From the IMG/VR virus record IMGVR_UViG_3300038674_000709, positions 1 through 49,389 of that record: a DNA stretch of 49,389 bases. One strand, 5' to 3'. The position numbers were made by a program, and so were the translations under genes. Positions 26,478 through 46,902 of this stretch are shown here, in pieces (the stretch's first letter is position 1; each line of letters opens with the position of its first letter). The notes under the pieces are model-generated. The model was not told the DNA's origin. It saw nothing but the letters and a program-made list of their open reading frames with translations, and did no database searches. This DNA is from a virus (taxonomy: Duplodnaviria; Caudoviricetes).

Positions 26478-26531
26478 CTAAAAAACTGCTGGCGTGTGCT
26501 GGCTTAATCGCACTTGAGAAAGGGTTATCAA

Positions 26532-27038
26532 ATGATGAACGTAGAAAATCTGATGTTTGGAAAAGCACTGCATCTGATGGGCAAAAATGAATCGCGGACA
26601 ATGTTCACACTTCTGGACGGCATGCGCAAACTGGGCAGGGAAGGACGGTATCTCAAAATCCACAATGAACCCTATATGCCGCTGACCATCGAGCTTGTTC
26701 AGGATGGTGTCAGGGGCTGTCCTGAAGGAACAATCATCCTCAGCATTGCGCACTACGGCCAGATGAACGGGGACTTAATGGCCGATCCCGAAATGACTTT
26801 CTTGGTCTGCGACAATGAGAAAACCCGGTACATCCGGCCTGTCTCATGGACAAATCACTACGCAGGGCGGCATGATGAATGCGCGGCATGGGCTGAAGAC
26901 GGGTCAATCAAAGGCTGGTACAACCGCCGTCTTGACTCTATGCTCTCATTTTCCAATATATGGATGCGCAATGTCAAAGCGCAGGGATTTCTCTGTATTG
27001 AGCAACTCATGAAGGATGAAACCGCCGCCTCTGCCTGA
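26532..27038 (+). CDS. DUF1249/DUF6908-like protein
   Basis: 'LKIHNEPYMPLTIE' and 'SIAHYGQMNGDLMADPEMTF' motifs; GAAAGGGTTATCAA RBS. Confidence 0.65.
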   Translation: MMNVENLMFGKALHLMGKNESRTMFTLLDGMRKLGREGRYLKIHNEPYMPLTIELVQDGVRGCPEGTIILSIAHYGQMNGDLMADPEMTFLVCDNEKTRYIRPVSWTNHYAGRHDECAAWAEDGSIKGWYNRRLDSMLSFSNIWMRNVKAQGFLCIEQLMKDETAASA

Positions 27039-27039
27039 A

Positions 27040-27107
27040 TGTCGAAACCCGTCCTTCAGGACGGGTCTGCGCTTCACTGGCTATGAGCGCACCGATGAGA
27101 CAAGCCG
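27040..27107 (+). ncRNA. Type II hammerhead ribozyme (variant core CCGAUGA)
   Basis: TGTC-GAAA-CCCGTCC/GGACGGG-TC^-TGCGCT/AGCGCA-CCGATGA-GACA; loop I TGGCT can pair with the 3' AGCCG pseudoknot. Confidence 0.8.
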
Positions 27108-27133
27108 CAAAACAACAATGATAAGGGGTTATC

Positions 27134-27784
27134 ATGAAAGCAAAAGAACGCGAAAATCTGGTTTTTAGCTGGGACGTATCCGACATCGTCGATAATGAGG
27201 TACGCTATCGACTGGAAAACTGGGAAGCGGGAACATGGGGGATTGAATCCGACGAGCCTGACGAAGAGGCAATCCGAAATGCCGTGTACAATTCATCATA
27301 CTTCTTTGAGGATGAATGGCAATTCCTGATTGATGCTTTGAATGAATTTCTTGGAGAACACGACTTTCTTAACGAGCCTCTGCTGGCAACCGTACGGAAC
27401 TTCGGCTGGCGCATGCAGGATGGGTTCAAAATTTTCACGGCTAAAAACGCCAAAGAGTTTCTTTGGGGATTACTGCCGAATACGGACTGCACGTTCTTTA
27501 TCCATTTCAAAGACGGTGAGCTTTCCATTCAAAACTACCATCACGACTCGCCCACCGGCAATGAGTGGTACTATGTCAAGCGGCTGCGGCCTGCCGTCGA
27601 GGAATCGGCAAAGAATAACTTCAAGAACGTATTCCGTTTAGTCCGCAAGCTGGTGTATGAGTTTAGCTGGTACTGCAATACGGAATCATTCAGATAATGC
27701 GGGGGCCGCTGTCCTACCCTTCAGGAGACAATTGACAATGCCCTGAATATGATCTCGCTGGAAGACCTCTACCGAGAACTCTAA
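27134..27784 (+). CDS. Hypothetical acidic early protein with internal in-frame TAA (27695-27697)
   Basis: 187 aa to the TAA, then 28 more in-frame codons to a TAA abutting the second hammerhead. Confidence 0.6.
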
Positions 27785-27855
27785 GCCGAAACAGGGGTTT
27801 TTCCCCTGTATGACCGGTATAGAACGTCTATCCGGCACTGATGAGGCAATGACGT
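27785..27855 (+). ncRNA. Type II hammerhead ribozyme (canonical core)
   Basis: GCC-GAAA-CAGGGG/CCCCTG-TA^-TG(A)CCGG/CCGGCA-CTGATGA-GGC; loop ACGTC pairs with GACGT 27851-27855. Confidence 0.85.
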
Positions 27856-27873
27856 ATTTGAAAGGATTGTCCG

Positions 27874-28155
27874 ATGGGCATAAGAGCGTACAGAGTAAAG
27901 CGAATTAAATATGCACAAGAGCCGCTGTTCAAAATCGGAGAACATCCGAACGTGGATTTCTGGATTGACCTGAATTGCAGTTTCGGATCGCTGAATGCGG
28001 CTTTTGAGATTGACAGGGATCTGCTGGAAGAACTGCTCAGCGACATCGAGCAGGCCAAAAAAGAACATGGTTTTGATGATGGCGATATTGACGTGCTGAA
28101 AGCCATGCTCGAAGAATGCGGCGACGAAGATTGTGTTACTTACCACTGTTTTTAA
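27874..28155 (+). CDS. Hypothetical acidic protein
   Basis: 93 aa, GAAAGGA RBS. Confidence 0.6.
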   Translation: MGIRAYRVKRIKYAQEPLFKIGEHPNVDFWIDLNCSFGSLNAAFEIDRDLLEELLSDIEQAKKEHGFDDGDIDVLKAMLEECGDEDCVTYHCF

Positions 28156-28168
28156 CTATGAAAGGACG

Positions 28169-28621
28169 ATGTATATGTACCGGCAAACGATTACTGAAGC
28201 ACTGCAAATGATCAAGCAGATTGCCTATGCGCAGGATGAAACAGGCAACCAGATTCACACCGATGGGATTATCCTGCTGTTGGAACAAGCCTGCGGCAAG
28301 CTGGAGAGGCCATTGCATGAAGGCGGCCTGCGCCCGATTGTACTGCTGATGTCTCCCGCACAAATCAGCAAACTGCAAAGATTATGCGTTGATGGCGGAG
28401 AAACCGAACAGGATTATCCGGCAATGGCACAGGTCTTGTTAAACGTGGCGATAAGCAGAGAACCGCAACGGAAAATGTCGCTTTCAGACCTTCGCGACGG
28501 CGGCGATTGTCCCCAGTGCGGGGCCGAAGAATCCATCGTCTATCATCGGGACAGCGGCAGAGATGATGAACACTATGAATGTGAAAAATGCGGCGAAACG
28601 TGGTACGTTGGGATTTTATGA
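28169..28621 (+). CDS. Hypothetical protein with C-terminal zinc ribbon
   Basis: CPQCG...CEKCGETW; GAAAGGA RBS before ATG 28169. Confidence 0.65.
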   Translation: MYMYRQTITEALQMIKQIAYAQDETGNQIHTDGIILLLEQACGKLERPLHEGGLRPIVLLMSPAQISKLQRLCVDGGETEQDYPAMAQVLLNVAISREPQRKMSLSDLRDGGDCPQCGAEESIVYHRDSGRDDEHYECEKCGETWYVGIL

Positions 28622-28705
28622 AAAAAGCCCGCCGATTGCGTTGAATCGACGAGCCACTTTGGGTTATCACGCCGTCCAGTGTATCTGCCGGACGGCACTT
28701 GTCAA
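28621..28705 (-). ncRNA. Predicted antisense sRNA gene (promoter, ~50-nt RNA, terminator)
   Basis: TTGACA (28705-28700)-16-TACACT (28683-28678); transcript starts about GUGAUAACCC (28670-28661), then hairpin GCTCGTCGATT/AATCGGCGGGC and U6. Confidence 0.65.
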
Positions 28706-28798
28706 GGACTAAGACATGGATTTTGGATTATGGATCATATTGGTCTTACTAACTTGGGCATTTTGGAAAAAATGCTGGAAAGGATAAGGGTTATCACA

Positions 28799-29438
28799 AT
28801 GCAGTTACACGAAGAATTCAGACCGAAAAACTGGCACAATGTAGTGGCACAGGCCAAAGTCATTGATCAGATTAACGCTCTGCGCTCGCGCGGTCTGGCC
28901 GGTCGCGCTTATTGGATCAGCGGCCAATCCGGAACCGGCAAAAACCACCATTGCCATGCTGCTGGCCTCCGAAGTCGCCGACCCGTTTTGCATTACAGAA
29001 CTTGATGCCGGACAGCTAACCCCCGCTATGGTCAGCCAGATCGAGCAGGAAATGACTTTTTACGGCTGGGGCGGCAAAGGCAGGGCCTACATCATCAACG
29101 AAGCACACGGCCTCAGAAAAGCCGCCATACGGCAATTGCTGGTGCTGTTAAAACGGCTGCCCAATCATGTGGCGATTATCTTTACGACCACTACAGAAGG
29201 TCAGGACATGCTGTTTGAAGACAATGAAGATACGGGGCCGCTATTGAGCCGCTGCGTTGAACTGCGCTTAAGCCGCCGAGACCTGGCAAAGCCGTTCGCC
29301 GAACGAGCCAAACAGATCGCTGAAAGCGTCGGTCTGGACGGACAGCCGCTGGAAAAATATGTCCGGCTGGTGCAATCATGCAAAAATAACCTGCGAACCG
29401 TCTTGCAGGAGATCGAAAAAGGAATAATGAATCAATGA
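28799..29438 (+). pseudogene. Clamp-loader/DnaX-like AAA+ ATPase, frameshifted in Walker A
   Basis: MQLHEEFRPKNW...GQSGTGK then TTIA...YIINEAH...LLSRC in the +1 frame; A5 run at 28940-28944 where A4 restores GKTT. Confidence 0.75.
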
Positions 29439-30193
29439 AACGAAAAAAGCCCACCAAAGCCGTCATTTACTGCCGCGTATCGGACTCCCGATACGCGGCG
29501 GAATCCGAATCGTGCCGGACACAGGAACAACTATGCCGTGCCTGGTGCCAATCCCAACAACTAACAGTCGTATGCTGCCACAGCGACAAGGCGATCAGCG
29601 GGGCCAAAGCAGACAACCGCCCCGGCCTGCAACATGCAATCCATGATGCCTGTCAGCACCGTGCCGTGCTGGTCGTGTACAGCCTGAGCCGATTTGCGCG
29701 CAATCTGAGAGAATGTCTGGAATTGGTGGATACGATCCATCGGAAGAATGCCGATTTTGCCAGTGTAAAAGAGAACTTTGATACCGCCAGTCCGTCCGGC
29801 GAACTGATTTTCCATATCTTCGCCGCCTTGCAGGAGTTTGAACGCCGGCAAATCGCACAGCGCACCCGCGATGCCATGCTGATCCATCAGGCCAATGGCC
29901 GGATCATGTCCGAACGGCTGCCCTACGGCTGCATGGTCGATCCGGCGGATTCGAGCAGAATGATTCCCAATCCGCACGAACAGAAAATCATGATGCGGGT
30001 GGCAAGCTGGCGGCAGCAGGGGTATAAACTGCGTGCGATAGCAGAGCGCCTTAACGCAGGCGGAGAAAAATTCGCCGCCCGCCCCGTCTGCGGCAAGCCC
30101 TCCAAATGGACGCATGGCCGCGTAGTATTCGTTCTGAAACGCGCCGAACAAGCGGGCCTGTACAAACCGTCCCGCCAGGAGCAAAACGCCTGA
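29435..30193 (+). CDS. Serine recombinase (resolvase domain + recombinase domain)
   Basis: AVIYCRVS catalytic Ser, 'RPGL', 'SLSRFARN', 'EFER', 'PYG'. Confidence 0.9.
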   Translation: MKRKKPTKAVIYCRVSDSRYAAESESCRTQEQLCRAWCQSQQLTVVCCHSDKAISGAKADNRPGLQHAIHDACQHRAVLVVYSLSRFARNLRECLELVDTIHRKNADFASVKENFDTASPSGELIFHIFAALQEFERRQIAQRTRDAMLIHQANGRIMSERLPYGCMVDPADSSRMIPNPHEQKIMMRVASWRQQGYKLRAIAERLNAGGEKFAARPVCGKPSKWTHGRVVFVLKRAEQAGLYKPSRQEQNA

Positions 30194-31409: not shown

Positions 31410-31997
31410 TTAACGGCAGCGGGTGCGTCGTTTGCCATAAAGACAAATGCCGCCAACAGCAAAGAGCATCATTGTAGTGGGTTCGGGGATGATAGTTATG
31501 TTGTCGAGAACACTTGAGGCCCCTTGAGAATAAATTCTGATGTTAAATGCACTTCCATCAAGCCACAGGCCAGTCAAATAGGTATTCTGGTATGTCCAGC
31601 CGGGCTGGCAATAAACAGTGATATGGTTTATGTCTCCGGGAGCCGGATAATAGGCATTGATTGAGTCGATCTGCCCTCCAGTGAGAACGATAAAAGCATT
31701 ATGTGTAGCTTCTAATAGCCGCACACTTCCGCCGGAGAAGCGAAGTTGACTATTTTCCCACAATTTGATAGTGTCAAGCCCAGTTATGCCTGAGGCATAT
31801 GGTGATGTAGTATTCCGAATATCTATTATACTATTATCTCTGCCCCATATTGTACCTCCTCCCCCTCCTGTCATAATCAAGGTATCATTATTTTTAATTG
31901 TAATAGAATTGAAATAACCATCGCTAATCGTATGAGTGGTTGCAAGCACAGAGACACTCATTACAGCCGCCGATAAAATTACCATTAATGCTCTCAT
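31410..31997 (-). CDS. PEP-CTERM sorting-domain protein
   Basis: Signal peptide; C-terminal IPEPTTMMLFAVGGICLYGKRR. Confidence 0.9.
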   Translation of the reverse strand: MRALMVILSAAVMSVSVLATTHTISDGYFNSITIKNNDTLIMTGGGGGTIWGRDNSIIDIRNTTSPYASGITGLDTIKLWENSQLRFSGGSVRLLEATHNAFIVLTGGQIDSINAYYPAPGDINHITVYCQPGWTYQNTYLTGLWLDGSAFNIRIYSQGASSVLDNITIIPEPTTMMLFAVGGICLYGKRRTRCR

Positions 31998-32015
31998 TGC
32001 CTGTTCCCTTGCTAT

Positions 32016-32630
32016 TTATACCTTTTTTCGGCGCACTAACAGAGTACCCAAACAAAGTAATATCATTGTCGCCGGTTCCGGGATTACTTTGATGTTCTGC
32101 CAGACGGGGCCATAATCCAAATCGTTGATGAATTCGATTTTGAAATATGAACCGCTGTCCCACCAATGGCCCTCGATTCCCTTCATACGATCACCATTAA
32201 TCCATGACCATCCATCTCGTGCATGAATAAAAACGTTCTCATCGTTTGAGGGATATCGCATAGTTTTGATGTAATTGATACTTCCGCCCTTGAGGGTTGC
32301 TGTAGTATTTTGACCAATTTGGATGTATTCAGTTACGCCGCCAAGATAAAGCAGTTGGGCATTGTTGCCAAGCAGAATATCATATACGCCGCTGACACCC
32401 ATAATCAGAGGGGTTGATGTGGATTGTACAATCAGGCGGCCGTTGTCGCGAACCGAAATGTCCAATGCTCCGCCCCCGTCAACAATCAGAGGAATTTGGT
32501 AACTCCGCCACGTTACCCCATATTCATACTCGCCAGCGGTGATAAAACCGTCGCTGTAACCGGCAAAAACCGCCGGGATGCAGCAACCAAGCAGCAATAA
32601 AGGTGCAATTCTTTTCATCACTTTTTCCAT
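32016..32630 (-). CDS. PEP-CTERM sorting-domain protein
   Basis: Signal peptide; IPEPATMILLCLGTLLVRRKK. Confidence 0.9.
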   Translation of the reverse strand: MEKVMKRIAPLLLLGCCIPAVFAGYSDGFITAGEYEYGVTWRSYQIPLIVDGGGALDISVRDNGRLIVQSTSTPLIMGVSGVYDILLGNNAQLLYLGGVTEYIQIGQNTTATLKGGSINYIKTMRYPSNDENVFIHARDGWSWINGDRMKGIEGHWWDSGSYFKIEFINDLDYGPVWQNIKVIPEPATMILLCLGTLLVRRKKV

Positions 32631-33260
32631 TCTTAGCGAAGTATAACCCTATTTCCTTCGCCTCAGCAGAAGACTCCCAACACCAATCAATAGCAGACTC
32701 GCCGGTTCAGGGATGACTTTGACATTCATATAAACGGGATTGAATCCGAGTTCTGTTCTATTGATGAACTCAATATAAAATGGCACACCATTTGCGAGCC
32801 AGTTGCCCTGAATGCCTTTCAGGGGGTCGTTGTCAATCCACGACCAACTGTCTTTCTGAGCATGAATGAAGATATTTTCTGTGGTTCCATATTGGTAACT
32901 CGAAATTTCATTGATGCTTCCGCCCTTGAGAACAGTTACAGCATTATCGGTGCGAACGGAAATTAACCGTGTGACGCCGTTCAAGTATTCTAATTGTGCG
33001 TTGTTGAAAAGCAGTATATCATACACACCGCTGACATATCTTTGCAGCGGTGTTGAGGTGGATTTGACAATTAGGCGGCCGTAGTCGCGAACTTGAATGT
33101 CTAATGCGCCCCCACCATCGACAATCAAGGGAATTTGGTAATTCCGCCATACCACGCCATACTCGTATTCGCCAGCGGTGATAAAACCGTCGCTGTAACC
33201 GGCAAAAACCGCCGGGATGCAGCAACCAAGCAGCAATAAAGGTGCAATTCTTTTCATCAC
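32530..33260. repeat. 92-bp identical direct repeat (32530-32621 and 33169-33260)
   Basis: Identical signal-peptide/N-terminal coding sequence of the two PEP-CTERM paralogs. Confidence 0.9.
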
Positions 33261-33269
33261 ATTCTCCAT
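32649..33269 (-). CDS. PEP-CTERM sorting-domain protein (paralog of 32016-32630)
   Basis: Signal peptide; IPEPASLLLIGVGSLLLRRRK. Confidence 0.9.
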   Translation of the reverse strand: MENVMKRIAPLLLLGCCIPAVFAGYSDGFITAGEYEYGVVWRNYQIPLIVDGGGALDIQVRDYGRLIVKSTSTPLQRYVSGVYDILLFNNAQLEYLNGVTRLISVRTDNAVTVLKGGSINEISSYQYGTTENIFIHAQKDSWSWIDNDPLKGIQGNWLANGVPFYIEFINRTELGFNPVYMNVKVIPEPASLLLIGVGSLLLRRRK

Positions 33270-33345: not shown

Positions 33346-36222
33346 TTACTCTAACTGGACTGTTCCGGTCTGCAATTCAACCAGATTCTGACAGACCGCA
33401 TCCATAAACTCCTGCCATAGCTGAGCGTCGATTTCCTGCTGAATCAGCGGGTCTTCCAGCCAAATTTGTTCCAGGAATACAATCGCCGAAGCCAGATCAA
33501 CCATCTGCTCCTGTACGGATTTCTGCTCAATGACAAGCGGTTCAGCCGTCGTTTCCATCATTGCCAACATTTGCATTTGTTCGCCACCGGACATTGTCTG
33601 CAAATCTTCTGAATACCAGCAGGCCCGCCAAAGCCACGGTGCATCCTCAAGGAAAAAGATCAGGTCGGCCAGATCAATGGCATGCGCACTGAGCCCCTGT
33701 GTTGCAAAGTTAAACTGATGTCCGTCCGGATACCACAGGGCCGTTTGCACAGAGGTAACATAGCCTGGGCTGTTCGGGTCGGTGCGGTATTCATAATCCG
33801 GGTTATTCGGATCGCTTAATGCGGTATCGTTGGGGTCATGCGCCCCAAAGAAGCGCGAAAAGCGGGCGAACTCTTCGAGATTAATCAATCCATCCGCATT
33901 AATGTCGTATGGGCTGGATACATCCATGTCGCAGGCGATCTCATACGCTCCCGCATCGACGGCATAGCCGGATTTTCTTGGTCTGCCGTCCATGTCCAAC
34001 TGCGTTTCATACAGCGCCATGAATTCAGGCGATTGGTCTGAGAGATACCTGCACGGGCTGCCCGGCGAGATTCGGACATTGTTGGGGTCGAAATACAAGA
34101 ATTCAGGATCGAGACTCGTATTGAAGTTAATGCTGTTTGCGTCTTCAATGCAGGAGTACATTGCCGCCTGATCTGCGGAAAAACCTACAAGGGCGGGGCC
34201 GCCATTGTGAAAAATAATCGAGTTGTAAATCTCCGGCAACTGGGTTCCCGCAAGAGCAACGCCTTCTGTGAAGTTATGCGATATTGTCACGTTCTGGAGA
34301 TAGGGTCTCTGCGGCGGATTCGCCATCATGAGACCTGCACGACCTTGGCGCAAAACGTCACTCTCCGACAGGACGCTATTGATAACAATGGGAACAGAGT
34401 TCAGGCTGTAGATGCCATATTGGCCGCTCTGCCGCACCCAAACGTTCTCCAGATAAAGCATCTTGCCTTCTCCGGTGTGCCGGATGCCGTCGGCTTCATT
34501 GTATCTGAAATTGACCCATTGGAATACGGCATTGCAGTTTTCTGTAAAAGCACCATAACCTAAGTTCTTAACAACGACGGAGTTAGCAACAGTAAAGTCA
34601 ACGTCCGATGCGTAAATACCTTGGCCGTCAAGTGCGCTTTCCGTAATTGTAAACCCGTCCAGAAGCGTATTATTACCCATCCGCAAAACCGTGGTATTGC
34701 GTTGCGTATCATTGATTTTGCCTGACAGAACGGCTTGATACCGCCTCGGATTGCGCAGGCCAAAATCACTGCCGCCTTTTGGGAAGCCTCCGTAAACGCT
34801 GATTTCATCCGGCAATACAAAACTATCATACGTATTCTCACCGGGTGTGTATGTATTTTGGGCGACATAGATTGAATTTACCTGCCCGCAAGGCGCAGAC
34901 CGAGCGTATTCCAGTGCATGCTGCAAATTGTTGTATGCTGTGCTCCATGATAACCCATTTCCGCCGGGAGCAACACTCTTATCCACATAAAGCACCTCGG
35001 GCGCGTCCTGCCAGCAGCAGACGGGCGTGTCCTTGGTTGCGATGGACAGTAGCCGCATTTCAGGAACAAGGATATTAGGATCACTGAGGGATGGCACGAG
35101 AATTGTGCCCCACAATTCAGCGACATTGTTCAGAACGCCTCCCGGTGCCGGGTTGCTGTCAACCGTCACTTCAAGTTGGCGACAAGCCCCTTGGCCAATA
35201 GGAATATCTCCGATTTCCCAACGATAATAGTGTTCCTGACTGTTGTAATTCTCATCAATTATCAGTGGGTTCATGCTAAGTATGAAATTGTAACGGACAT
35301 TTTTAGGCAGCCAGTCGATAATGACGGTGTCCTGCAATGTCTGATCGGAATTATTGGTAAAGCACAGACTGTAAGTGAAGGTAGTATCCGGATTTATGCA
35401 TTGACCAAAAAGACCATCATCCTTTGTGAACGCATAGCACTGAATTGCGCCGACAATGGCATCTTCAATCTCGATGCCTCCTGATCCTACTTGGTTAAAG
35501 AGCGTGCCTCCGGTTGCCGCCGTGATCTCGCTGGCCTGTCGGCGGTTATGATACAATTCATTCAGGCCGTTGTATTGGTCTAATGCGTTCAGTGCAAAGA
35601 CCTTAATCGATTGTGAAGCCAGCGCAATGATGGTGCCATCGAGTGACGGATAGTAAGGATTATCAATATCATCATGGCCGGGTGCGTCACCTGCCCAAAT
35701 CAAAATTCTGTCTGCTACTTGCCGACCCTTGAATCCAAGATTGCCAGCCGTTGTAGTCCAGTTATTCGCAATACTGACCATAGCCTTCAGTTGGCTTTCG
35801 GGATGATCCCCACCATCCCCAGTTGTAAGTCCATCAATTGCATCCCGCACGTTCTGGATATTGGATGTGAACGGTTGAACCAGATTCACGCCGTAAGCTG
35901 CATAATTGCCGCCATCATCATAATTCCTGTAATCGGCCACACTAAACATGATTGTGTCAGGACAGGAATCGGCCTCAATTGCGGCAATGATGCCCTCAAA
36001 AGCAGTCTTGATGCTGTTGATGCCTCCCATGCTGCCTGTCGTATCTACCAAAAACAGCACATCGGTCACCGCAAAGCTATGGATGCTGCAAAAAACGAGG
36101 AGAGTTAAAATGAGGAATAATCTCTTGGCTCCATATCCTGCGTTTCTCCTGTCCCTGCTTGCCGCTTTTCCTGCAATGAGATTGATTTTGCAACAATCTC
36201 CTGTTACCATCTTGGTTTTCAT
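33346..36222 (-). CDS. Secreted VWA + DUF11-like + right-handed beta-helix + dockerin-like protein
   Basis: FLVDTTGSM (DxTGS MIDAS), 'IIDWLP' DUF11-like segment, 'LYVD..A..GGNGLSW..AY..LQ.AL', 'DMDG.PR...VDAGAYE', 'DINADG.INL.EF'. GGGAGG SD before ATG 36222; in-frame upstream ATG at 36291. Confidence 0.8.
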   Translation of the reverse strand: MKTKMVTGDCCKINLIAGKAASRDRRNAGYGAKRLFLILTLLVFCSIHSFAVTDVLFLVDTTGSMGGINSIKTAFEGIIAAIEADSCPDTIMFSVADYRNYDDGGNYAAYGVNLVQPFTSNIQNVRDAIDGLTTGDGGDHPESQLKAMVSIANNWTTTAGNLGFKGRQVADRILIWAGDAPGHDDIDNPYYPSLDGTIIALASQSIKVFALNALDQYNGLNELYHNRRQASEITAATGGTLFNQVGSGGIEIEDAIVGAIQCYAFTKDDGLFGQCINPDTTFTYSLCFTNNSDQTLQDTVIIDWLPKNVRYNFILSMNPLIIDENYNSQEHYYRWEIGDIPIGQGACRQLEVTVDSNPAPGGVLNNVAELWGTILVPSLSDPNILVPEMRLLSIATKDTPVCCWQDAPEVLYVDKSVAPGGNGLSWSTAYNNLQHALEYARSAPCGQVNSIYVAQNTYTPGENTYDSFVLPDEISVYGGFPKGGSDFGLRNPRRYQAVLSGKINDTQRNTTVLRMGNNTLLDGFTITESALDGQGIYASDVDFTVANSVVVKNLGYGAFTENCNAVFQWVNFRYNEADGIRHTGEGKMLYLENVWVRQSGQYGIYSLNSVPIVINSVLSESDVLRQGRAGLMMANPPQRPYLQNVTISHNFTEGVALAGTQLPEIYNSIIFHNGGPALVGFSADQAAMYSCIEDANSINFNTSLDPEFLYFDPNNVRISPGSPCRYLSDQSPEFMALYETQLDMDGRPRKSGYAVDAGAYEIACDMDVSSPYDINADGLINLEEFARFSRFFGAHDPNDTALSDPNNPDYEYRTDPNSPGYVTSVQTALWYPDGHQFNFATQGLSAHAIDLADLIFFLEDAPWLWRACWYSEDLQTMSGGEQMQMLAMMETTAEPLVIEQKSVQEQMVDLASAIVFLEQIWLEDPLIQQEIDAQLWQEFMDAVCQNLVELQTGTVQLE

Positions 36223-36485
36223 ATAAACCTCCCTAAAACAAAGTTGTCCCCCCATCTGTTTAATAAAGCTCTCAGTCAAATTTACAACCATTTATTTCAT
36301 GCAGCCTCCTTTCTTGTGTAATCCCTTTCATTTTTAGAAAATCCGGGCTGCACAAAGAAAGAACCCCTTCACCGAATCCTTTCGCAGCCCGGCACTATTT
36401 AGTTGTCAATATGCCGGATGGTATGAACCCAGAGAACACACCATTCCGGCAAACCGCACTATGGCGGCGGCAGAAAATTGTAGTA

Positions 36486-36716
36486 GTTTGCAGCGGAACT
36501 CGTAGAAATGTTAAGGAGCGCCGACTGCAAACGCTCGTACAAGGTTCGCCAGAACCCGTGAGGAACGCCGCAAGACGGCGCCCCAACTTGGGGCACCGGC
36601 TTCTACGTTTCCTCGTTACATAAACTGGCGATTTAGTACGAAACGCTCAAAGTCCAGTGGACTTTCGATATTTAATTGTCACGATCAAAATACTACCCTC
36701 CGGAATACTTTGTCAA
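36486..36716 (-). ncRNA. C4/CI-like antisense RNA unit 1 (promoter, leader, structured core 36536-36640, downstream hairpin)
   Basis: Nested stems CGTAC/GTACG, TCGCCAG/CTGGCGA, GAGGAA/TTCCTC, CGGTGCCCC/GGGGCGCCG; unpaired CGTAGAA complementary to 36501-36507. Confidence 0.55.
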
Positions 36717-36732
36717 TCAAAAAATATTGTGT

Positions 36733-36956
36733 GTGGCAGATGCTCAAAGAATTGTTGAGGCACTGCCACGCATCCTGTTGAGGCCTGCGACAGCCTGAAT
36801 CGGAACACGTAAACAGTGCCCCGATTTGGGGCACTGGCTCTGTGCATTTCCGATTCATTGAATGTCGCAGTTTCAACAGGAACGCTTCAAAGTCCAGTGG
36901 ACTTTCAAATATTAAATTGTCGTTAATAGCATAGTAAATTGCCTATAGCAGGTCAA
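36733..36956 (-). ncRNA. C4/CI-like antisense RNA unit 2
   Basis: TTGACC-17-TATGCT; stems CCTGTTGA/TCAACAGG, CTGCGACA/TGTCGCAG, TGAATCGGAA/TTCCGATTCA, CAGTGCCCC/GGGGCACTG; shares a ~40-nt leader with unit 1. Confidence 0.55.
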
Positions 36957-36986
36957 TTAAAAAAACATCGCCGGAAAACCACAAAT

Positions 36987-37193
36987 CTAAGTAATGCTTC
37001 CACAAGGCTTTACACGCTTGCTGTTCTTTTGGGCCTCCCACAAAAACCGTCCGGCTTTTTCCGGATCGGCACACTTTAGAGCGTACGCAAGCTGCCATCG
37101 CTCGGCCAGCGTGCAATGCACAACATGCGTTCGGCAACCGGCATACGTCCTGCAAATCGGATAGCTCAGATGCTTTTTGATGATGTCGTTCAT
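36987..37193 (-). CDS. Hypothetical protein
   Basis: 68 aa Cys-containing ORF after the lysis-like genes; weak support. Confidence 0.35.
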   Translation of the reverse strand: MNDIIKKHLSYPICRTYAGCRTHVVHCTLAERWQLAYALKCADPEKAGRFLWEAQKNSKRVKPCGSIT

Positions 37194-37260
37194 GGGTTTT
37201 GCCTGAAAATGCCCTGCCCGCCGTTCGCGAAGCGGACAGGGCCGGTCCTAAGATTTCCCC

Positions 37261-37554
37261 TTACCGATCCGGTTGAGGGGTTTTAACTGCCTTCAATTCC
37301 GCCGCAGCCCGTACCAGCGCGGCCAGTTCATTCTTGTGGATCAGGAAATACCCTCCCATATCGAGCATAAGCATTTCATTCGATCCGTAAATCCCTACGG
37401 GGATGGGCTTGTTGGTTTGGACGTACAGTGATCCAAGACATTCTTCAGGAATCGGGCTACCGGATTGAATCACCACCCGCGTCTTCGAGCATCCAGCCGT
37501 ACTTAGCCAGCAGAGCGTCAAGATCAACATCCGCATTAGGAATTTTGCCTTCAT
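37261..37554 (-). CDS. Lipoprotein (possible spanin component)
   Basis: MKAKFLMRMLILTLCWLSTAG-C lipobox; overlaps the upstream small ORF. Confidence 0.55.
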   Translation of the reverse strand: MKAKFLMRMLILTLCWLSTAGCSKTRVVIQSGSPIPEECLGSLYVQTNKPIPVGIYGSNEMLMLDMGGYFLIHKNELAALVRAAAELKAVKTPQPDR

Positions 37555-38495: not shown

Positions 38496-39338
38496 CTATT
38501 CCGTCCAGAACCGGGTATTTTCGACTACGGCAAGAACCGCCGGTTTTGTTGCTCCCGCCTGATACCACTGGCGGACGTCTTTGTGACGAGGCGGCTTAAT
38601 CACTCTGACGCTGCGTACAAACGGCGATACGGCTTTGGCCAGCAACAGGGCCCCCTCTTGCCCAGGACGCCACAGAGAGCCGTCTGGACGCTTCTTGGGC
38701 TCGTCTTTATCGGCCATGATGATTACATGCCGTCGCCGCACACTGAGGAACTTCAGGATGGCTTCTGTTCCCGCCGAACACGAAGGTCTTCCTATGGCAC
38801 TGAAACCCAGGTCCAGCATCGCCGCACAGTCGCTTTCACCTTCGCAGATGTAAAGATCATCATCTGATTTGCATGACACGCAAATCGGCCAATAAATGCC
38901 AAGCTGCGATCCCGGCACGCAAAACTTGCCGCCCTTTGGCGCGCGCAGTTTGACACCGATCACCCGGTCCAGCCCGTTGCGCATGGGAAAGGTGTAATTA
39001 ACTCCATCATACCCGATTTCCAATTCGCGCAGCGCCGCCGGTGAAACGCCAAGCTGCCCTGCAAGTCTTCGGCAAAGCGCATCCGTACATCGGAGTTTGT
39101 ACCGGTTCATCAATGCGTACATATCAGCCGGAGATTTTTTCTTCGGTTCCGGCTTAGGCAGCGGCTTTATCAGGGGCGCACTTAACCGGTGAAGCCATCC
39201 GCCGTTTTTGGTTTTAACTGCCGATTCCACCCGCATACAGATCGCCATCCTGCCATCGGCGGTCATGCCACACCAATCCGGATGATCGCATACCGGACAA
39301 CGGTTGTTCTTTGAGACGCGGATCATGCTAATCCTCAA
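38496..39338 (-). CDS. DNA primase (zinc-binding + TOPRIM)
   Basis: CPVCDHPDWC; ICEGESD; ADKD; KDVRQW. Confidence 0.85.
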   Translation of the reverse strand: MRISMIRVSKNNRCPVCDHPDWCGMTADGRMAICMRVESAVKTKNGGWLHRLSAPLIKPLPKPEPKKKSPADMYALMNRYKLRCTDALCRRLAGQLGVSPAALRELEIGYDGVNYTFPMRNGLDRVIGVKLRAPKGGKFCVPGSQLGIYWPICVSCKSDDDLYICEGESDCAAMLDLGFSAIGRPSCSAGTEAILKFLSVRRRHVIIMADKDEPKKRPDGSLWRPGQEGALLLAKAVSPFVRSVRVIKPPRHKDVRQWYQAGATKPAVLAVVENTRFWTE

Positions 39339-40113
39339 ACATCATCATGCACTGGTTATCGTCGGCTCTAATCGCTTTTCGATCACGATCAAGCCACCAT
39401 TCCCAATATTCCTGCGGGGTGCTGAACTTGAATCTTTTACTTGAATCCGGCTTATAAGTGGCTTTAATGGCTTTTTCCCATGCCTGTGCAAGTCGCGGCC
39501 AGCGTTGCATTTCTCGCGCAATACTCAGGCTGTCTTTCTTCATAGGACACAAAACACAGCCAAGCCGCTTGAATCCTTCGTCATAAAGTCTGCAATACGA
39601 AAGCCGATTTTTCCTGATGAAATTCCAAACATCATGCTCCGTCCAGTCGATAATGGGATGCAGCATCCAGGTTCGTTTTCGTCTGAATTGCGCCTCGAAC
39701 ATCCGCCTCTTTGCTCTTCGGTTGCTCTCCGCCCAACGCACCCCGGTGATTATTATTCGACCTGCCCCGTTCCCTTCTTTCAGGACTTCACAGCAGAACC
39801 GGGCATTTCGGCGTGGAGGCATTCCTTTCTTGCGAATAAGCTGCCACATTGTCATTTTGGGCTTTTCGATCCGTATTTCAGGGTGCGTCCGTACAAAATA
39901 CACAAGCTCCGGCGGATCGCACGTCGTAAGATAGTGATGTGCTGTAAACTTAATTCCGGCTCTTTTTGCAAGTTCCAGAATTACCACCGAATCCTTGCCT
40001 CCGGAAAATGACAGATGGTATCCATTCTCACACAAATTAAGCGCTGCATTTTCAAACTCCCTCATGCGTCCTATCGCTCTGTCTTCAAGTTGTCCAAAAA
40101 GCGTATTGCTCAC
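39328..40113 (-). CDS. Phosphoadenosine phosphosulfate (PAPS) reductase-family protein
   Basis: SFSGGKDS PP-loop, RFCC..LK, GVRWAES, RLGCVLCP. Confidence 0.9.
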   Translation of the reverse strand: MSNTLFGQLEDRAIGRMREFENAALNLCENGYHLSFSGGKDSVVILELAKRAGIKFTAHHYLTTCDPPELVYFVRTHPEIRIEKPKMTMWQLIRKKGMPPRRNARFCCEVLKEGNGAGRIIITGVRWAESNRRAKRRMFEAQFRRKRTWMLHPIIDWTEHDVWNFIRKNRLSYCRLYDEGFKRLGCVLCPMKKDSLSIAREMQRWPRLAQAWEKAIKATYKPDSSKRFKFSTPQEYWEWWLDRDRKAIRADDNQCMMMFED

Positions 40114-44767: not shown

Positions 44768-45606
44768 CAGTCGCCTCCCGCCATGAGACTGTCCAGATAC
44801 GTCTTGCACTTTTGGACCATCGGCATCGTCCATTTCTCCTGCTTATCCACATCGGATTCATTGCAGGCTAATCCCAATGCCGCCATCTCCTTAAAATGAG
44901 TTGCCGAAACCGCATCCGCCGGGTCCAATCGCATCCACTCACAAAATGCGTTGTACAACCCTTTCAGAGACACCTTGACCAGATTGGCATCAGAGACCGG
45001 GTTAACAGACGGCAGCGCCCCCGGGCCCGCCCGGTCCGTTACCGGTTGCTCGGCAGGCGCCGGGTGTTGTCTGCGTTGTTAGCGCGGCGGCGTGTCGCAT
45101 GTGGGCTGCGGCAGCATGTCATCTTCTTCGATCTCCTGAGTGATATGAATGCCCTGCATGACTTCAGGCCACCCGTCACGCAAGCCGAATCCGAGCGCCC
45201 TGTACCGCTTCATACGCGTTTCATATTCGCGCCAAGGCCCTGACTTACCGATCAGATTCGCTTTTTTGGCGTCTTCATGAGAAAACTGCCGTTCAATCGG
45301 TTTGGCTTGATCTTTCCGTTTTCCCTTAAAATAAGCCGTTCCGTTCTCAAACCATTCCTCGATGTACTCGCAAAGACCGCTTTTACGTACCAACCCCAGC
45401 GCCAAATCACCATCGACGGTAGGCGTGGTTCCTTTGTAGGTGATCCCTTTCAGAGAGGCCATCGGCCCGATCCCAAGCTCGTCGCCATACTGAATGATGC
45501 AAAGAATCTGCTCGACCGTCAGCTTCTTGTCTCTTGTCGCTCGTATGCCTGCTTTTGCCGCACATTCGGCAAAACTCAGCATGTCCTGATACGTGCTGAA
45601 TTTCAT
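44767..45606 (-). CDS. RecT-like single-strand annealing protein with internal TAA at 45079-45081
   Basis: 'IQYGDELGIGPM', 'DAKKANL..K.GPW..Y..RM..YRA'; the frame continues after TAA into the 44767-44973 ORF. Confidence 0.7.
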
Positions 45607-46640
45607 AACCTGCTCTCCATGAAAATCTGTACCAAAAGTTCTCTGAATGCTTTTTCTGCGGTCTGCTGCACTATTCCGTTGCCTGTAAGTCGAAGGCGGT
45701 CCACCCGACAGGCCATCCCATGAGTTGTTCGACCCAGTCCGGGTTCAATTGTCCGCGGCTTTTCCCAGTCAAATTGCTCGCATCCGGGTCGTGCCGGCCA
45801 TCTTCCACAACCGCGCACAGATAATGCTTCTTCTTCATTGTTAGCTGACTCCTGCTTCCTTTTGGGCCGGTCCCCTTCCATTCGCTGCTGCGTGGTGTGG
45901 GCCAGTTGACCATATCGATCAGGGATTCGCCCGTATGCGCTCCCCGTCTTTTTTTCTGAATGTAGGTCTCCGATGTCCCCCGCGTTGCATCGCAGGTATT
46001 CGGGGTCGCCCAGTTGCCCTGATCTCGCAATTTGTAATGGCCGTTCTTCCCCTGGGCATTGAGGTTGTCCATAAATCCGCCCTCGCCATCGCTGGAATTG
46101 GGCGTTCTCCAGGCCGAGAATGAAGACCCGCTGGCGTTTATGCGGAGCGCCGATTTCCTCCGCCGAATACAATCCCCACGACGCTGTGTAACCTCTCTCT
46201 TCCAAATCTCTGAGGACATACAGCAGTACCGGCGTTCCGTCGAGACATTTTGTGGTAATGATGCCCGGCACGTTTTCAAGGAAAACAAGGGCAGGTCGGC
46301 ACAATCGAATGCCGCCTGCAATGAACGGCCACAGGTGTCTTGGATCAGTCGTTGCAAGGCCCTTTCCAGCACAACTGAACGGCTGGCAAGGAAAGCCCGC
46401 TGTGAGGACATCATAACATCCGTGAGCCTGCCGATAAGGGAAGGTTTTAACATCCGGCCACACAGCGTCGAGAGCCAGCCGACCCGTTTGAGCCTTTTCA
46501 ACCAGATTTGCGATGGCGTAGGCTTCGATCTCCACAGCACAGATTCGGCAAGGAGTTCGGAGAGCTTTTTCAACGGCTCTGTCGAGCATCGCTGATCCGG
46601 TTGCCAGTGACAGTATTCGGAGGTAATCGGCACGATCCAC
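45603..46640 (-). CDS. C5-cytosine DNA methyltransferase (alpha chain)
   Basis: AGFPCQPFS, ENV, HKRQRVF, 'RLRLTGNG'; motif I degenerate (SLATGSAM). Start GTG 46640. Confidence 0.85.
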   Translation of the reverse strand: MDRADYLRILSLATGSAMLDRAVEKALRTPCRICAVEIEAYAIANLVEKAQTGRLALDAVWPDVKTFPYRQAHGCYDVLTAGFPCQPFSCAGKGLATTDPRHLWPFIAGGIRLCRPALVFLENVPGIITTKCLDGTPVLLYVLRDLEERGYTASWGLYSAEEIGAPHKRQRVFILGLENAQFQRWRGRIYGQPQCPGEERPLQIARSGQLGDPEYLRCNAGDIGDLHSEKKTGSAYGRIPDRYGQLAHTTQQRMEGDRPKRKQESANNEEEALSVRGCGRWPARPGCEQFDWEKPRTIEPGLGRTTHGMACRVDRLRLTGNGIVQQTAEKAFRELLVQIFMESRL

Positions 46641-46642
46641 AC
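45671..46642 (-). CDS. Overprinted MTase partner (beta chain) in an alternative frame
   Basis: 323 aa with W(R/A/P)TP repeats and C-terminal LNPDWVEQLMGWPVGWT (motif IX-like). Confidence 0.7.
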   Translation of the reverse strand: MWIVPITSEYCHWQPDQRCSTEPLKKLSELLAESVLWRSKPTPSQIWLKRLKRVGWLSTLCGRMLKPSLIGRLTDVMMSSQRAFLASRSVVLERALQRLIQDTCGRSLQAAFDCADLPLFSLKTCRASLPQNVSTERRYCCMSSEIWKREVTQRRGDCIRRRKSALRINASGSSFSAWRTPNSSDGEGGFMDNLNAQGKNGHYKLRDQGNWATPNTCDATRGTSETYIQKKRRGAHTGESLIDMVNWPTPRSSEWKGTGPKGSRSQLTMKKKHYLCAVVEDGRHDPDASNLTGKSRGQLNPDWVEQLMGWPVGWTAFDLQATE

Positions 46643-46650
46643 GATGGTTC

Positions 46651-46902
46651 CTATTTCTCGTAGAGCGGCTCACTGTTTTTCCGGCAGCGGTTGACAATTT
46701 CGACCAGTTGCTGGTAGGAGTATTTTTTCCGACCGCCCACAAGGACCGGTTGGAGTCCGTGATTGGCGCAGATCTTCGCTACATTGCGGTAAAATTCCTC
46801 CCTGGTGATATTCAGCGCTTTGGCCGCCTGCTGCGGATCAACCAAAAGCGGAGTTAACTTATGATCATCTATGATTTTTGGAGTTGACATTTCGTTTCTC
46901 AT
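46651..46902 (-). CDS. Excisionase-like HTH protein
   Basis: 'LVDPQQAAKALNITREEFY...VGGRKKY' wHTH pattern. Confidence 0.6.
   Translation of the reverse strand: MRNEMSTPKIIDDHKLTPLLVDPQQAAKALNITREEFYRNVAKICANHGLQPVLVGGRKKYSYQQLVEIVNRCRKNSEPLYEK

Follow-up and report, generated by a model that had tools for sequence, protein, structure and literature searches.

C4 RNAs typically lie upstream of antirepressor (icd/ant) genes, whereas kissing-loop riboswitches (purine, lysine, cobalamin) combine a multi-way junction with a loop-loop closure that overlaps a terminator. A UUGGCG loop motif is reportedly named in the title of a 1998 article by Asano on the plasmid ColIb-P9. The P4 CI RNA is encoded in a leader, has complementary partners both upstream and downstream, and gives premature termination as its output (PMC4825925), and another article cites CI and C4 as RNase P substrates (PMC5499578). 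The pyr leader of B. subtilis, controlled by PyrR, is described as an anti-antiterminator (1:2), an antiterminator (2:3) and a terminator (3:4), with ON as the default state (PMC4347634), and plasmid loop-loop antisense systems use kissing hairpins in which an interior loop sits beneath the tip (PMC3753616).

The window analyzed here is the whole 49,389-nt virus record IMGVR_UViG_3300038674_000709, which contains integrase, tRNA-Arg, repressor, terminase, and major head genes and, judged by this gene content, is a temperate phage. Its minus strand carries two repeat units. On comparative grounds, each belongs to a family of structured leaders of about 180 nt that occur in multiple copies close to promoters and have no match in Rfam. 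Like a PyrR-type attenuator, this leader follows the 1:2 / 2:3 / 3:4 logic with a predicted default ON state, and these exclusive pairings are kept across homologs in a position between a promoter and a same-strand gene; unlike PyrR leaders, its antiterminator appears to be locked by variable kissing arms, and no pyrimidine genes were found among the scanned cargo. As in P4 CI and P1/P7 C4, one leader contains partners upstream and downstream (segment 2 with 1, segment 3 with 4), and the 2:3 fold is of tRNA-like topology. However, it shows no exposed a'/b' boxes with covarying targets, gives no Rfam match, and is mostly chromosomal, ahead of surface-protein and restriction-modification (RM) genes instead of immunity or antirepressor genes. 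With the pT181 attenuator, ColIb-P9 Inc/repZ, pMU720, and R1 CopA/CopT it shares kissing hairpins of this build, and its commonest loop-B code is UUGGCG, the motif said to be named in the 1998 title. In contrast to these plasmid systems, the two kissing partners are encoded on one strand and sit in a single transcript, an antisense promoter is not enriched, and the cargo is not a replication initiator. Finally, it resembles kissing-loop riboswitches in having a multi-way junction closed by loop-loop pairing that overlaps a terminator, but its junction and loop sequences vary and its cargo has no common metabolite.

No Rfam model of a known riboswitch class, PyrR, or the T-box matched the element. 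In the window no match to the element reached the gathering score, and none was found to E 10 in 36200-37300; the same held to E 0.1 for the element in 20 homolog loci, where a SAM-I/IV match in L227 lies elsewhere in the locus. As regards a trp-type leader-peptide attenuator, there was no conserved leader ORF over segment 1 in 156 copies, and starts led by a Shine-Dalgarno site were scattered, with at most 17 of the 156 copies in any 20-nt bin. Searches of open-access papers turned up no description of the motif; subscription papers or bioRxiv supplements may contain it.

Both leader units sit between small phage genes and a cargo block composed of one VWA/DUF11/beta-helix gene and three PEP-CTERM genes (cf. 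Table 1). Since the named homologs of the VWA protein come from Anaerohalosphaeraceae, this is the likely host family, and the phage likely acquired its two leader copies together with the surface-protein cassette. Separate searches of viral contigs for the VWA protein and for the apical-hairpin pattern gave no match. The first-pass annotation had described two tandem units, each with a sigma-70 promoter, a shared leader palindrome, and a common nested fold, and this description was borne out: the units are 240 nt apart, the palindrome recurs at P0 of both and nowhere else in the window, and folding predicted a stable nested rod for each (z -5.8 and -9.9). The two promoters, compared with 1.2 expected, are weak evidence taken alone, but are supported by the family-level test given below.

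Table 1. Coordinates of the leader units and cargo genes in the window
Feature	Position	Strand	Basis
Unit 2 sigma-70-like promoter (-35 36951-36956, -10 36928-36933)	36928..36956	-	family-wide -35/-10 at fixed distance
Unit 2 conserved single-stranded 5' motif, predicted +1 to +12	36910..36921	-	
Unit 2 hairpin P0 (36889-36905, leader palindrome), overlapping segment 1 (36879-36899)	36879..36905	-	
Unit 2 P1 5' arm and kissing loop A	36861..36882	-	
Unit 2 segment 2, holding the proposed guide; partner is segment 1 or segment 3	36828..36851	-	
Unit 2 segment 3; partner is segment 2 or segment 4	36802..36822	-	
Unit 2 hairpin B: loop B (36782-36795) and P1 3' arm	36773..36795	-	
Unit 2 segment 4 (36757-36775) without clean U-tract, then segment 5 (36733-36745), which re-pairs with segment 4	36733..36775	-	
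Unit 1 sigma-70-like promoter	36687..36716	-	window scan and family-level promoter test
Unit 1 5' motif (36669-36680), hairpin P0 (36649-36665, leader palindrome), segment 1 (36640-36659)	36640..36680	-	
Unit 1 P1 5' arm and kissing loop A	36622..36642	-	
Unit 1 segment 2, holding the proposed guide	36590..36612	-	
Unit 1 segment 3	36562..36584	-	
Unit 1 hairpin B: loop B (36543-36556) and P1 3' arm	36534..36556	-	
Unit 1 segment 4 (36515-36536), weak U-tract, and segment 5 (36487-36501)	36487..36536	-	
Second leader module, three hairpins; the last (36343-36393) contains the third proposed target	36343..36475	-	
First cargo gene, secreted VWA/DUF11/beta-helix protein, likely start 36222	33346..36291	-	
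Three PEP-CTERM genes (32649-33269, 32016-32630, 31410-31997), likely one operon with the VWA gene	31410..33269	-	

Several further features of this region were recorded. The second leader module has no Rfam match, and a comparable module of two or three hairpins between element and gene recurs in long leaders (L035, L115, L117, L168, L186). A copy of the 5' motif lies at 36404-36393, ahead of the last hairpin before the VWA gene, with a weak model match there (E 2.7). At 36292-36312, a strong Shine-Dalgarno site is followed by a two-codon mini-ORF abutting the VWA frame, and similar mini-ORFs are present at L035, L117, L178, and L201. The PEP-CTERM cargo adjoins an opposite-strand block (26514-30193) with DUF6908, a clamp-loader-like ATPase, and a serine recombinase, and the early region of the phage includes a PAPS reductase-family gene and a C5 cytosine methylase (39328-40113 and 45603-46742).

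The window leader was also found on other, deeper contigs with differing continuations, which indicated a multi-copy host element. Scanning the species genomes for the palindrome yielded 64 loci, 17 of which held the leader in the same context (16 in planctomycete-titled records, one in an untitled bacterium), and 14 metagenome loci provided further copies. A first covariance model, built from 19 copies, matched 42 of 70 host-family genomes, with up to nine matches per genome, sometimes in tandem, and 7 of 101 genomes of that family's phylum. A second model matched 22 of the 151 genomes sampled from the host family's class, 32 of 121 genomes of Verrucomicrobiota (the phylum of a Lacunisphaera record) and 3 of 101 of Bacteroidota (the phylum of a Bacteroidia record), and none of 424 genomes in four phyla (101 Acidobacteriota, 101 Bacillota, 121 Pseudomonadota, and 101 Chloroflexota), the phylum names being taken from record titles. 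Remote members are probably under-counted, as the search relied on these two models and no broader one. Distant copies retain the whole layout. The element was also present on two viral contigs. The palindrome search in viral contigs and a blastn comparison with cultured phages and plasmids returned no match. The 5' motif did not suffice to identify the element: at none of 29 motif loci taken genome-wide did the model match below E 0.99, and motif counts exceeded the control in only two of five genomes.

Other observations concern the genomic behavior of these sequences. Twelve further palindrome matches in unrelated context were read as chance. In records of Vicingaceae, Flavobacteriales, and Pigmentiphaga, the same 17-nt palindrome forms the core of multi-copy REP-like repeats in another context (L014, L016, L021-L024, L027-L031, and similar loci). 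New combinations of promoter, rod, and downstream gene seem to have arisen among copies, with conserved segments switched (L013, L025, L048, L072, L076, L080), and two natural deletion derivatives (L071:3909-3969 and L193:2487-2620) were noted, one without segments 2-3 and the other without the central arm but with both kissing loops. General integration at tRNA sites was ruled out by the presence of a single tRNA gene among 60 loci. A SAM-I/IV riboswitch above the gathering score and a tRNA-Thr lie near one copy from the Verrucomicrobiota phylum (L227:3012-3120).

At the family level, a sense promoter was found in 83 of 156 copies compared with 17 after shuffling, with -35 and -10 peaks at a fixed distance and a predicted start just before the 5' motif. 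Antisense promoters, scored as sigma-70-type sites only, were not enriched (19 of 156 vs 29 shuffled) and showed no positional peak. A same-strand ORF was called behind 118 of the 136 elements listed, and most of the others lie close to where a contig or locus stops. Within the host family, the strand of the following gene almost always agrees with that of the element, and this gene usually starts 20-130 nt away with a hydrophobic N-terminus. Among the 88 downstream proteins scanned out of the 118 called (duplicates and doubtful ones omitted), 37 were of the DUF11/beta-helix or related type, 6 PEP-CTERM, 2 dockerin, 4 restriction-modification-type, and 5 others, and 34 had no match. Outside the host family, 44 first or second genes were scanned out of 63 called, and they included 5 methylases, 3 nucleases, 4 LuxR-type, and 2 PEP-CTERM proteins, with 19 giving no match. 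A restriction-modification methylase is the first or second cargo gene at L131, L140, L150, L217, L254, L258, L259, and L265. The upstream ORFs are mutually unrelated, and no regulator or recombinase recurred in the 71 of 114 that were scanned.

Across 103 diverged copies the four segments pair as 1:2, 2:3, and 3:4, and the changes between aligned copies point to the preservation of two mutually exclusive folds, one with 2:3 and the other with 1:2 and 3:4. Two alignments, both fitted to the 2:3 fold, were analyzed: a non-redundant set of 85 copies (63% identity; 88 aligned, minus one truncated, one identical, and one near-identical row) and a set of 103 copies (49% identity; 107 aligned, minus two reverse-strand and two redundant rows). 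For the 2:3 fold, fourteen pairs in the 85-copy set exceeded every tree-simulated null value: five of eight pairs in P1, seven of nine in P3, one in P0, and one in hairpin B. The loop A:B register also covaried, though absent from the model (E 0.1, 0.75, and 1.0), and the combined 2:3 structure was paired in 95.5% of cells, compared with 78.0% in shuffled alignments of the same set. Since P1, P3, and the two loops covary and the combined structure pairs above shuffles, the rod of the first-pass annotation seems better drawn as a four-way junction in which two side loops pair. A 4-pair stem below loop A is possible in 62 of 85 copies, and the commonest covarying loop codes are CGCCAR (A) and YUGGCG (B). 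Thus drawn, the 2:3 fold is locked by the variable stems P1 and P3 and by the loop A:B pairing, and these stems and kissing loops are the variable, address-like parts of the leader.

The 3:4 fold, which is likewise absent from the model, was paired in 94.3% of cells vs 89.2% after shuffling and 39-60% when the segments were slid, and one position of segment 4 carries A only opposite U (12 of 85 copies), never opposite C (0 of 52). Individual terminator pairs did not reach significance against the tree null (85 copies; best E 19-68), because several partners hold these bases, and support for 3:4 comes from aggregate tests. When each segment was compared with its own and the median foreign partner, the own partner was better in all 103 copies for both 3:4 and loops A:B and in 98 of 103 for 1:2, whereas three control pairings were null in these permutation tests, which are not fully phylogeny-corrected. 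This preference persisted in 47 copies added after the family-level search. A U-tract follows the 3:4 helix in 76 of 85 copies and in 81 of the 103 in the larger set, both window units being among the 22 without one. Furthermore, as seen by eye, subfamilies with an altered leader alter segment 2 in step, and an extended segment 3 is accompanied by an extended segment 4. A YUNR count (84 of 103) and a count of hairpin-B lengths had no control and were left unused.

These folds led us to propose that the leader is probably a transcription attenuator that would be ON by default and OFF upon capture of a variable arm. Transcription would start from the upstream promoters and, in the OFF state, end at the U-tract; in the nascent RNA, 1:2 is predicted to pair first and to be replaced by the 2:3 antiterminator, and blocking of the A arm would flip the balance to 1:2 with the 3:4 terminator. 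In folds of growing prefixes, 1:2 dominated at complete segment 2 in 73 of 85 copies, and 2:3 did so once segment 3 appeared. The 2:3 fold was more stable by about 13 kcal/mol on average, which predicts ON as the default, and in equilibrium folds with no blocker the terminator won in a single copy of the 85. Blocking the A arm gave the terminator in 67 of 85, both window units included, and blocking the B arm did so in 51 of 85, whereas blocking the leader or a single loop produced it in 1 to 7, which indicates that the variable arms hold the switch ON. The output step of the two phage copies is the least certain part of this proposal, because they belong to the minority of copies lacking a clean U-tract. 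In full-leader folds that include segment 5, both units formed 4:5 and not 3:4, even with the A arm blocked; since segment 4 re-pairs with segment 5 and 3:4 was not recovered, the window copies may act by pausing, by factor-assisted termination, or as a weakened switch. Folding did not reproduce a relay leading from unit 1 via the downstream hairpins, and this idea was rejected.

Our leading guess for the trigger, held tentatively and modeled on C4 and CI, is that the element's own terminated or processed 3' half would kiss loop A in trans, giving locus-specific negative feedback. Each code is known from no sequence other than the element itself, and the isolated 3' half is predicted to take the terminator fold with hairpin B at its tip (82 and 79 of 85 copies). 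In co-folding, binding to the nascent 5' half reached -10 kcal/mol or better for a copy's own 3' half in 69 of 85 cases and for a foreign one in 11 of 340, a difference that follows from the cis complementarity and serves as a plausibility check only. Against a trans trigger counts the advantage of the cis partner over a trans RNA; full co-folds with the own 3' half gave a nascent terminator in only 23 of 85 copies. The lack of an enriched antisense promoter also counts against it, and so does the sharing of kissing codes: two copies of one genome had the same code in 26% of 88 pairs, compared with 17% for copies of different genomes, and orthogonality of loop codes within genomes was not seen. 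A protein or small molecule that stabilizes 1:2 is a rather doubtful trigger in our judgment, and kinetic partition alone would be an equally doubtful one.

An effector switch would have the architecture of the proposed attenuator and differ in the trigger alone: a PyrR-like protein, a metabolite, or an ion would set termination by binding either to the 1:2 hairpin or to the four-way junction with its kissing loops, with no trans RNA involved. We regard this as unlikely. It has in its favor the 1:2 / 2:3 / 3:4 logic ascribed to PyrR (PMC4347634), the retention across phyla of the single-stranded 5' motif and of the short stems flanking both loops, and the existence of tandem copies; however, the leader hairpin and segments 1-4 vary between subfamilies and leave few invariant unpaired bases for a pocket, the cargo has no common pathway, no regulator family recurs in the 71 upstream ORFs, and blocking the leader did not flip the fold.

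Less probable still, the product would be an independent small RNA of about 180 nt that ends at the U-tract, with the alternative pairings only aiding its folding and with a fixed leak or separate promoters accounting for expression of the downstream genes. The element does possess its own promoter, a terminator-like end, and a tRNA-like topology, the cargo outside the host family is heterogeneous, and some long leaders contain additional promoter-like sites downstream. Yet the spacing, strand, and hydrophobic N-terminus of the next gene in the host family count against this reading, and the stable fold sequesters segment 3, which the terminator requires, so that the two cannot coexist.

Improbable to a further degree is a DNA-level element, that is, a non-autonomous mobile repeat or a recombination site with the palindrome as operator or crossover point. 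Such an element would be multi-copy and patchy with unrelated upstream genes, as observed, and would agree with the apparent reassortment of promoter, rod, and gene and with the repeats in unrelated taxa that have the same palindrome as their core. In contrast, the G-U-tolerant covariation in two folds, the strand-specific U-tract, and the fixed promoter distance argue for RNA, some subfamilies replace the palindrome, and no recombinase recurs in the 71 upstream ORFs.

It had also been suggested at the outset that each unit is a modular, guide-swappable RNA of the C4 type, with a variable unpaired segment directed at short boxes and with surface proteins in place of an antirepressor under its control. 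The second half of this suggestion held: the leader is modular, with covarying, copy-variable parts, it precedes surface-protein genes, and no antirepressor family occurred among the 88 and 44 downstream proteins scanned. The guide/target pairs did not hold. All three complementarities can be read in the sequence, but they are at chance level: within 267 nt of downstream sequence, 40 of 81 other loci offer the unit 1 guide a run of at least 8 pairs, and 16 of 81 offer the unit 2 guide one of at least 9. Comparison of own with foreign downstream regions gave z about 1 (82 loci), another test gave z -1.4, and the guide segments instead pair with the upstream leader of their own copy (z -6). In the predicted fold most of the supposedly unpaired segment is base-paired, and the segment belongs to segment 2 as a semi-conserved portion of it. 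The Rfam models C4 (RF01695), c4-2, and c4-a1b1 had no match in the window, in 36200-37300 to E 10, or in the 20 homolog loci. Action of C4-like RNAs through short unpaired guides on 36501-36507, 36740-36749, and 36349-36357 is thus highly improbable despite the three complementarities, given the missing C4-type match, the missing guide/target covariation, and a third target that is the conserved arm of its own hairpin in loci with different guides.

This structured leader class, which extends over Planctomycetota, Verrucomicrobiota, and some Bacteroidota, is missing from Rfam 15, and a temperate phage carries this leader control along with its cargo. Both states of the proposed switch are visible in natural covariation, which makes direct mutational tests possible. 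It may give initial access to the way in which poorly studied bacteria dose surface-protein and restriction-modification genes gained by horizontal transfer. If the trans trigger is true, the family would be a natural library of orthogonal RNA-only attenuators. It is conceivable, if on the doubtful side, that these are widespread self-addressed RNA attenuators, in which each copy would encode a target arm and its own antisense inhibitor (the terminated or cleaved 3' half), with stems and loops as locus codes. On that reading, newly arrived DNA, such as a phage or a surface or RM cassette, would receive a burst of expression followed by shutdown as its own leader RNA accumulates; this would need neither a protein nor a counter-transcript, and several orthogonal copies could share one genome.
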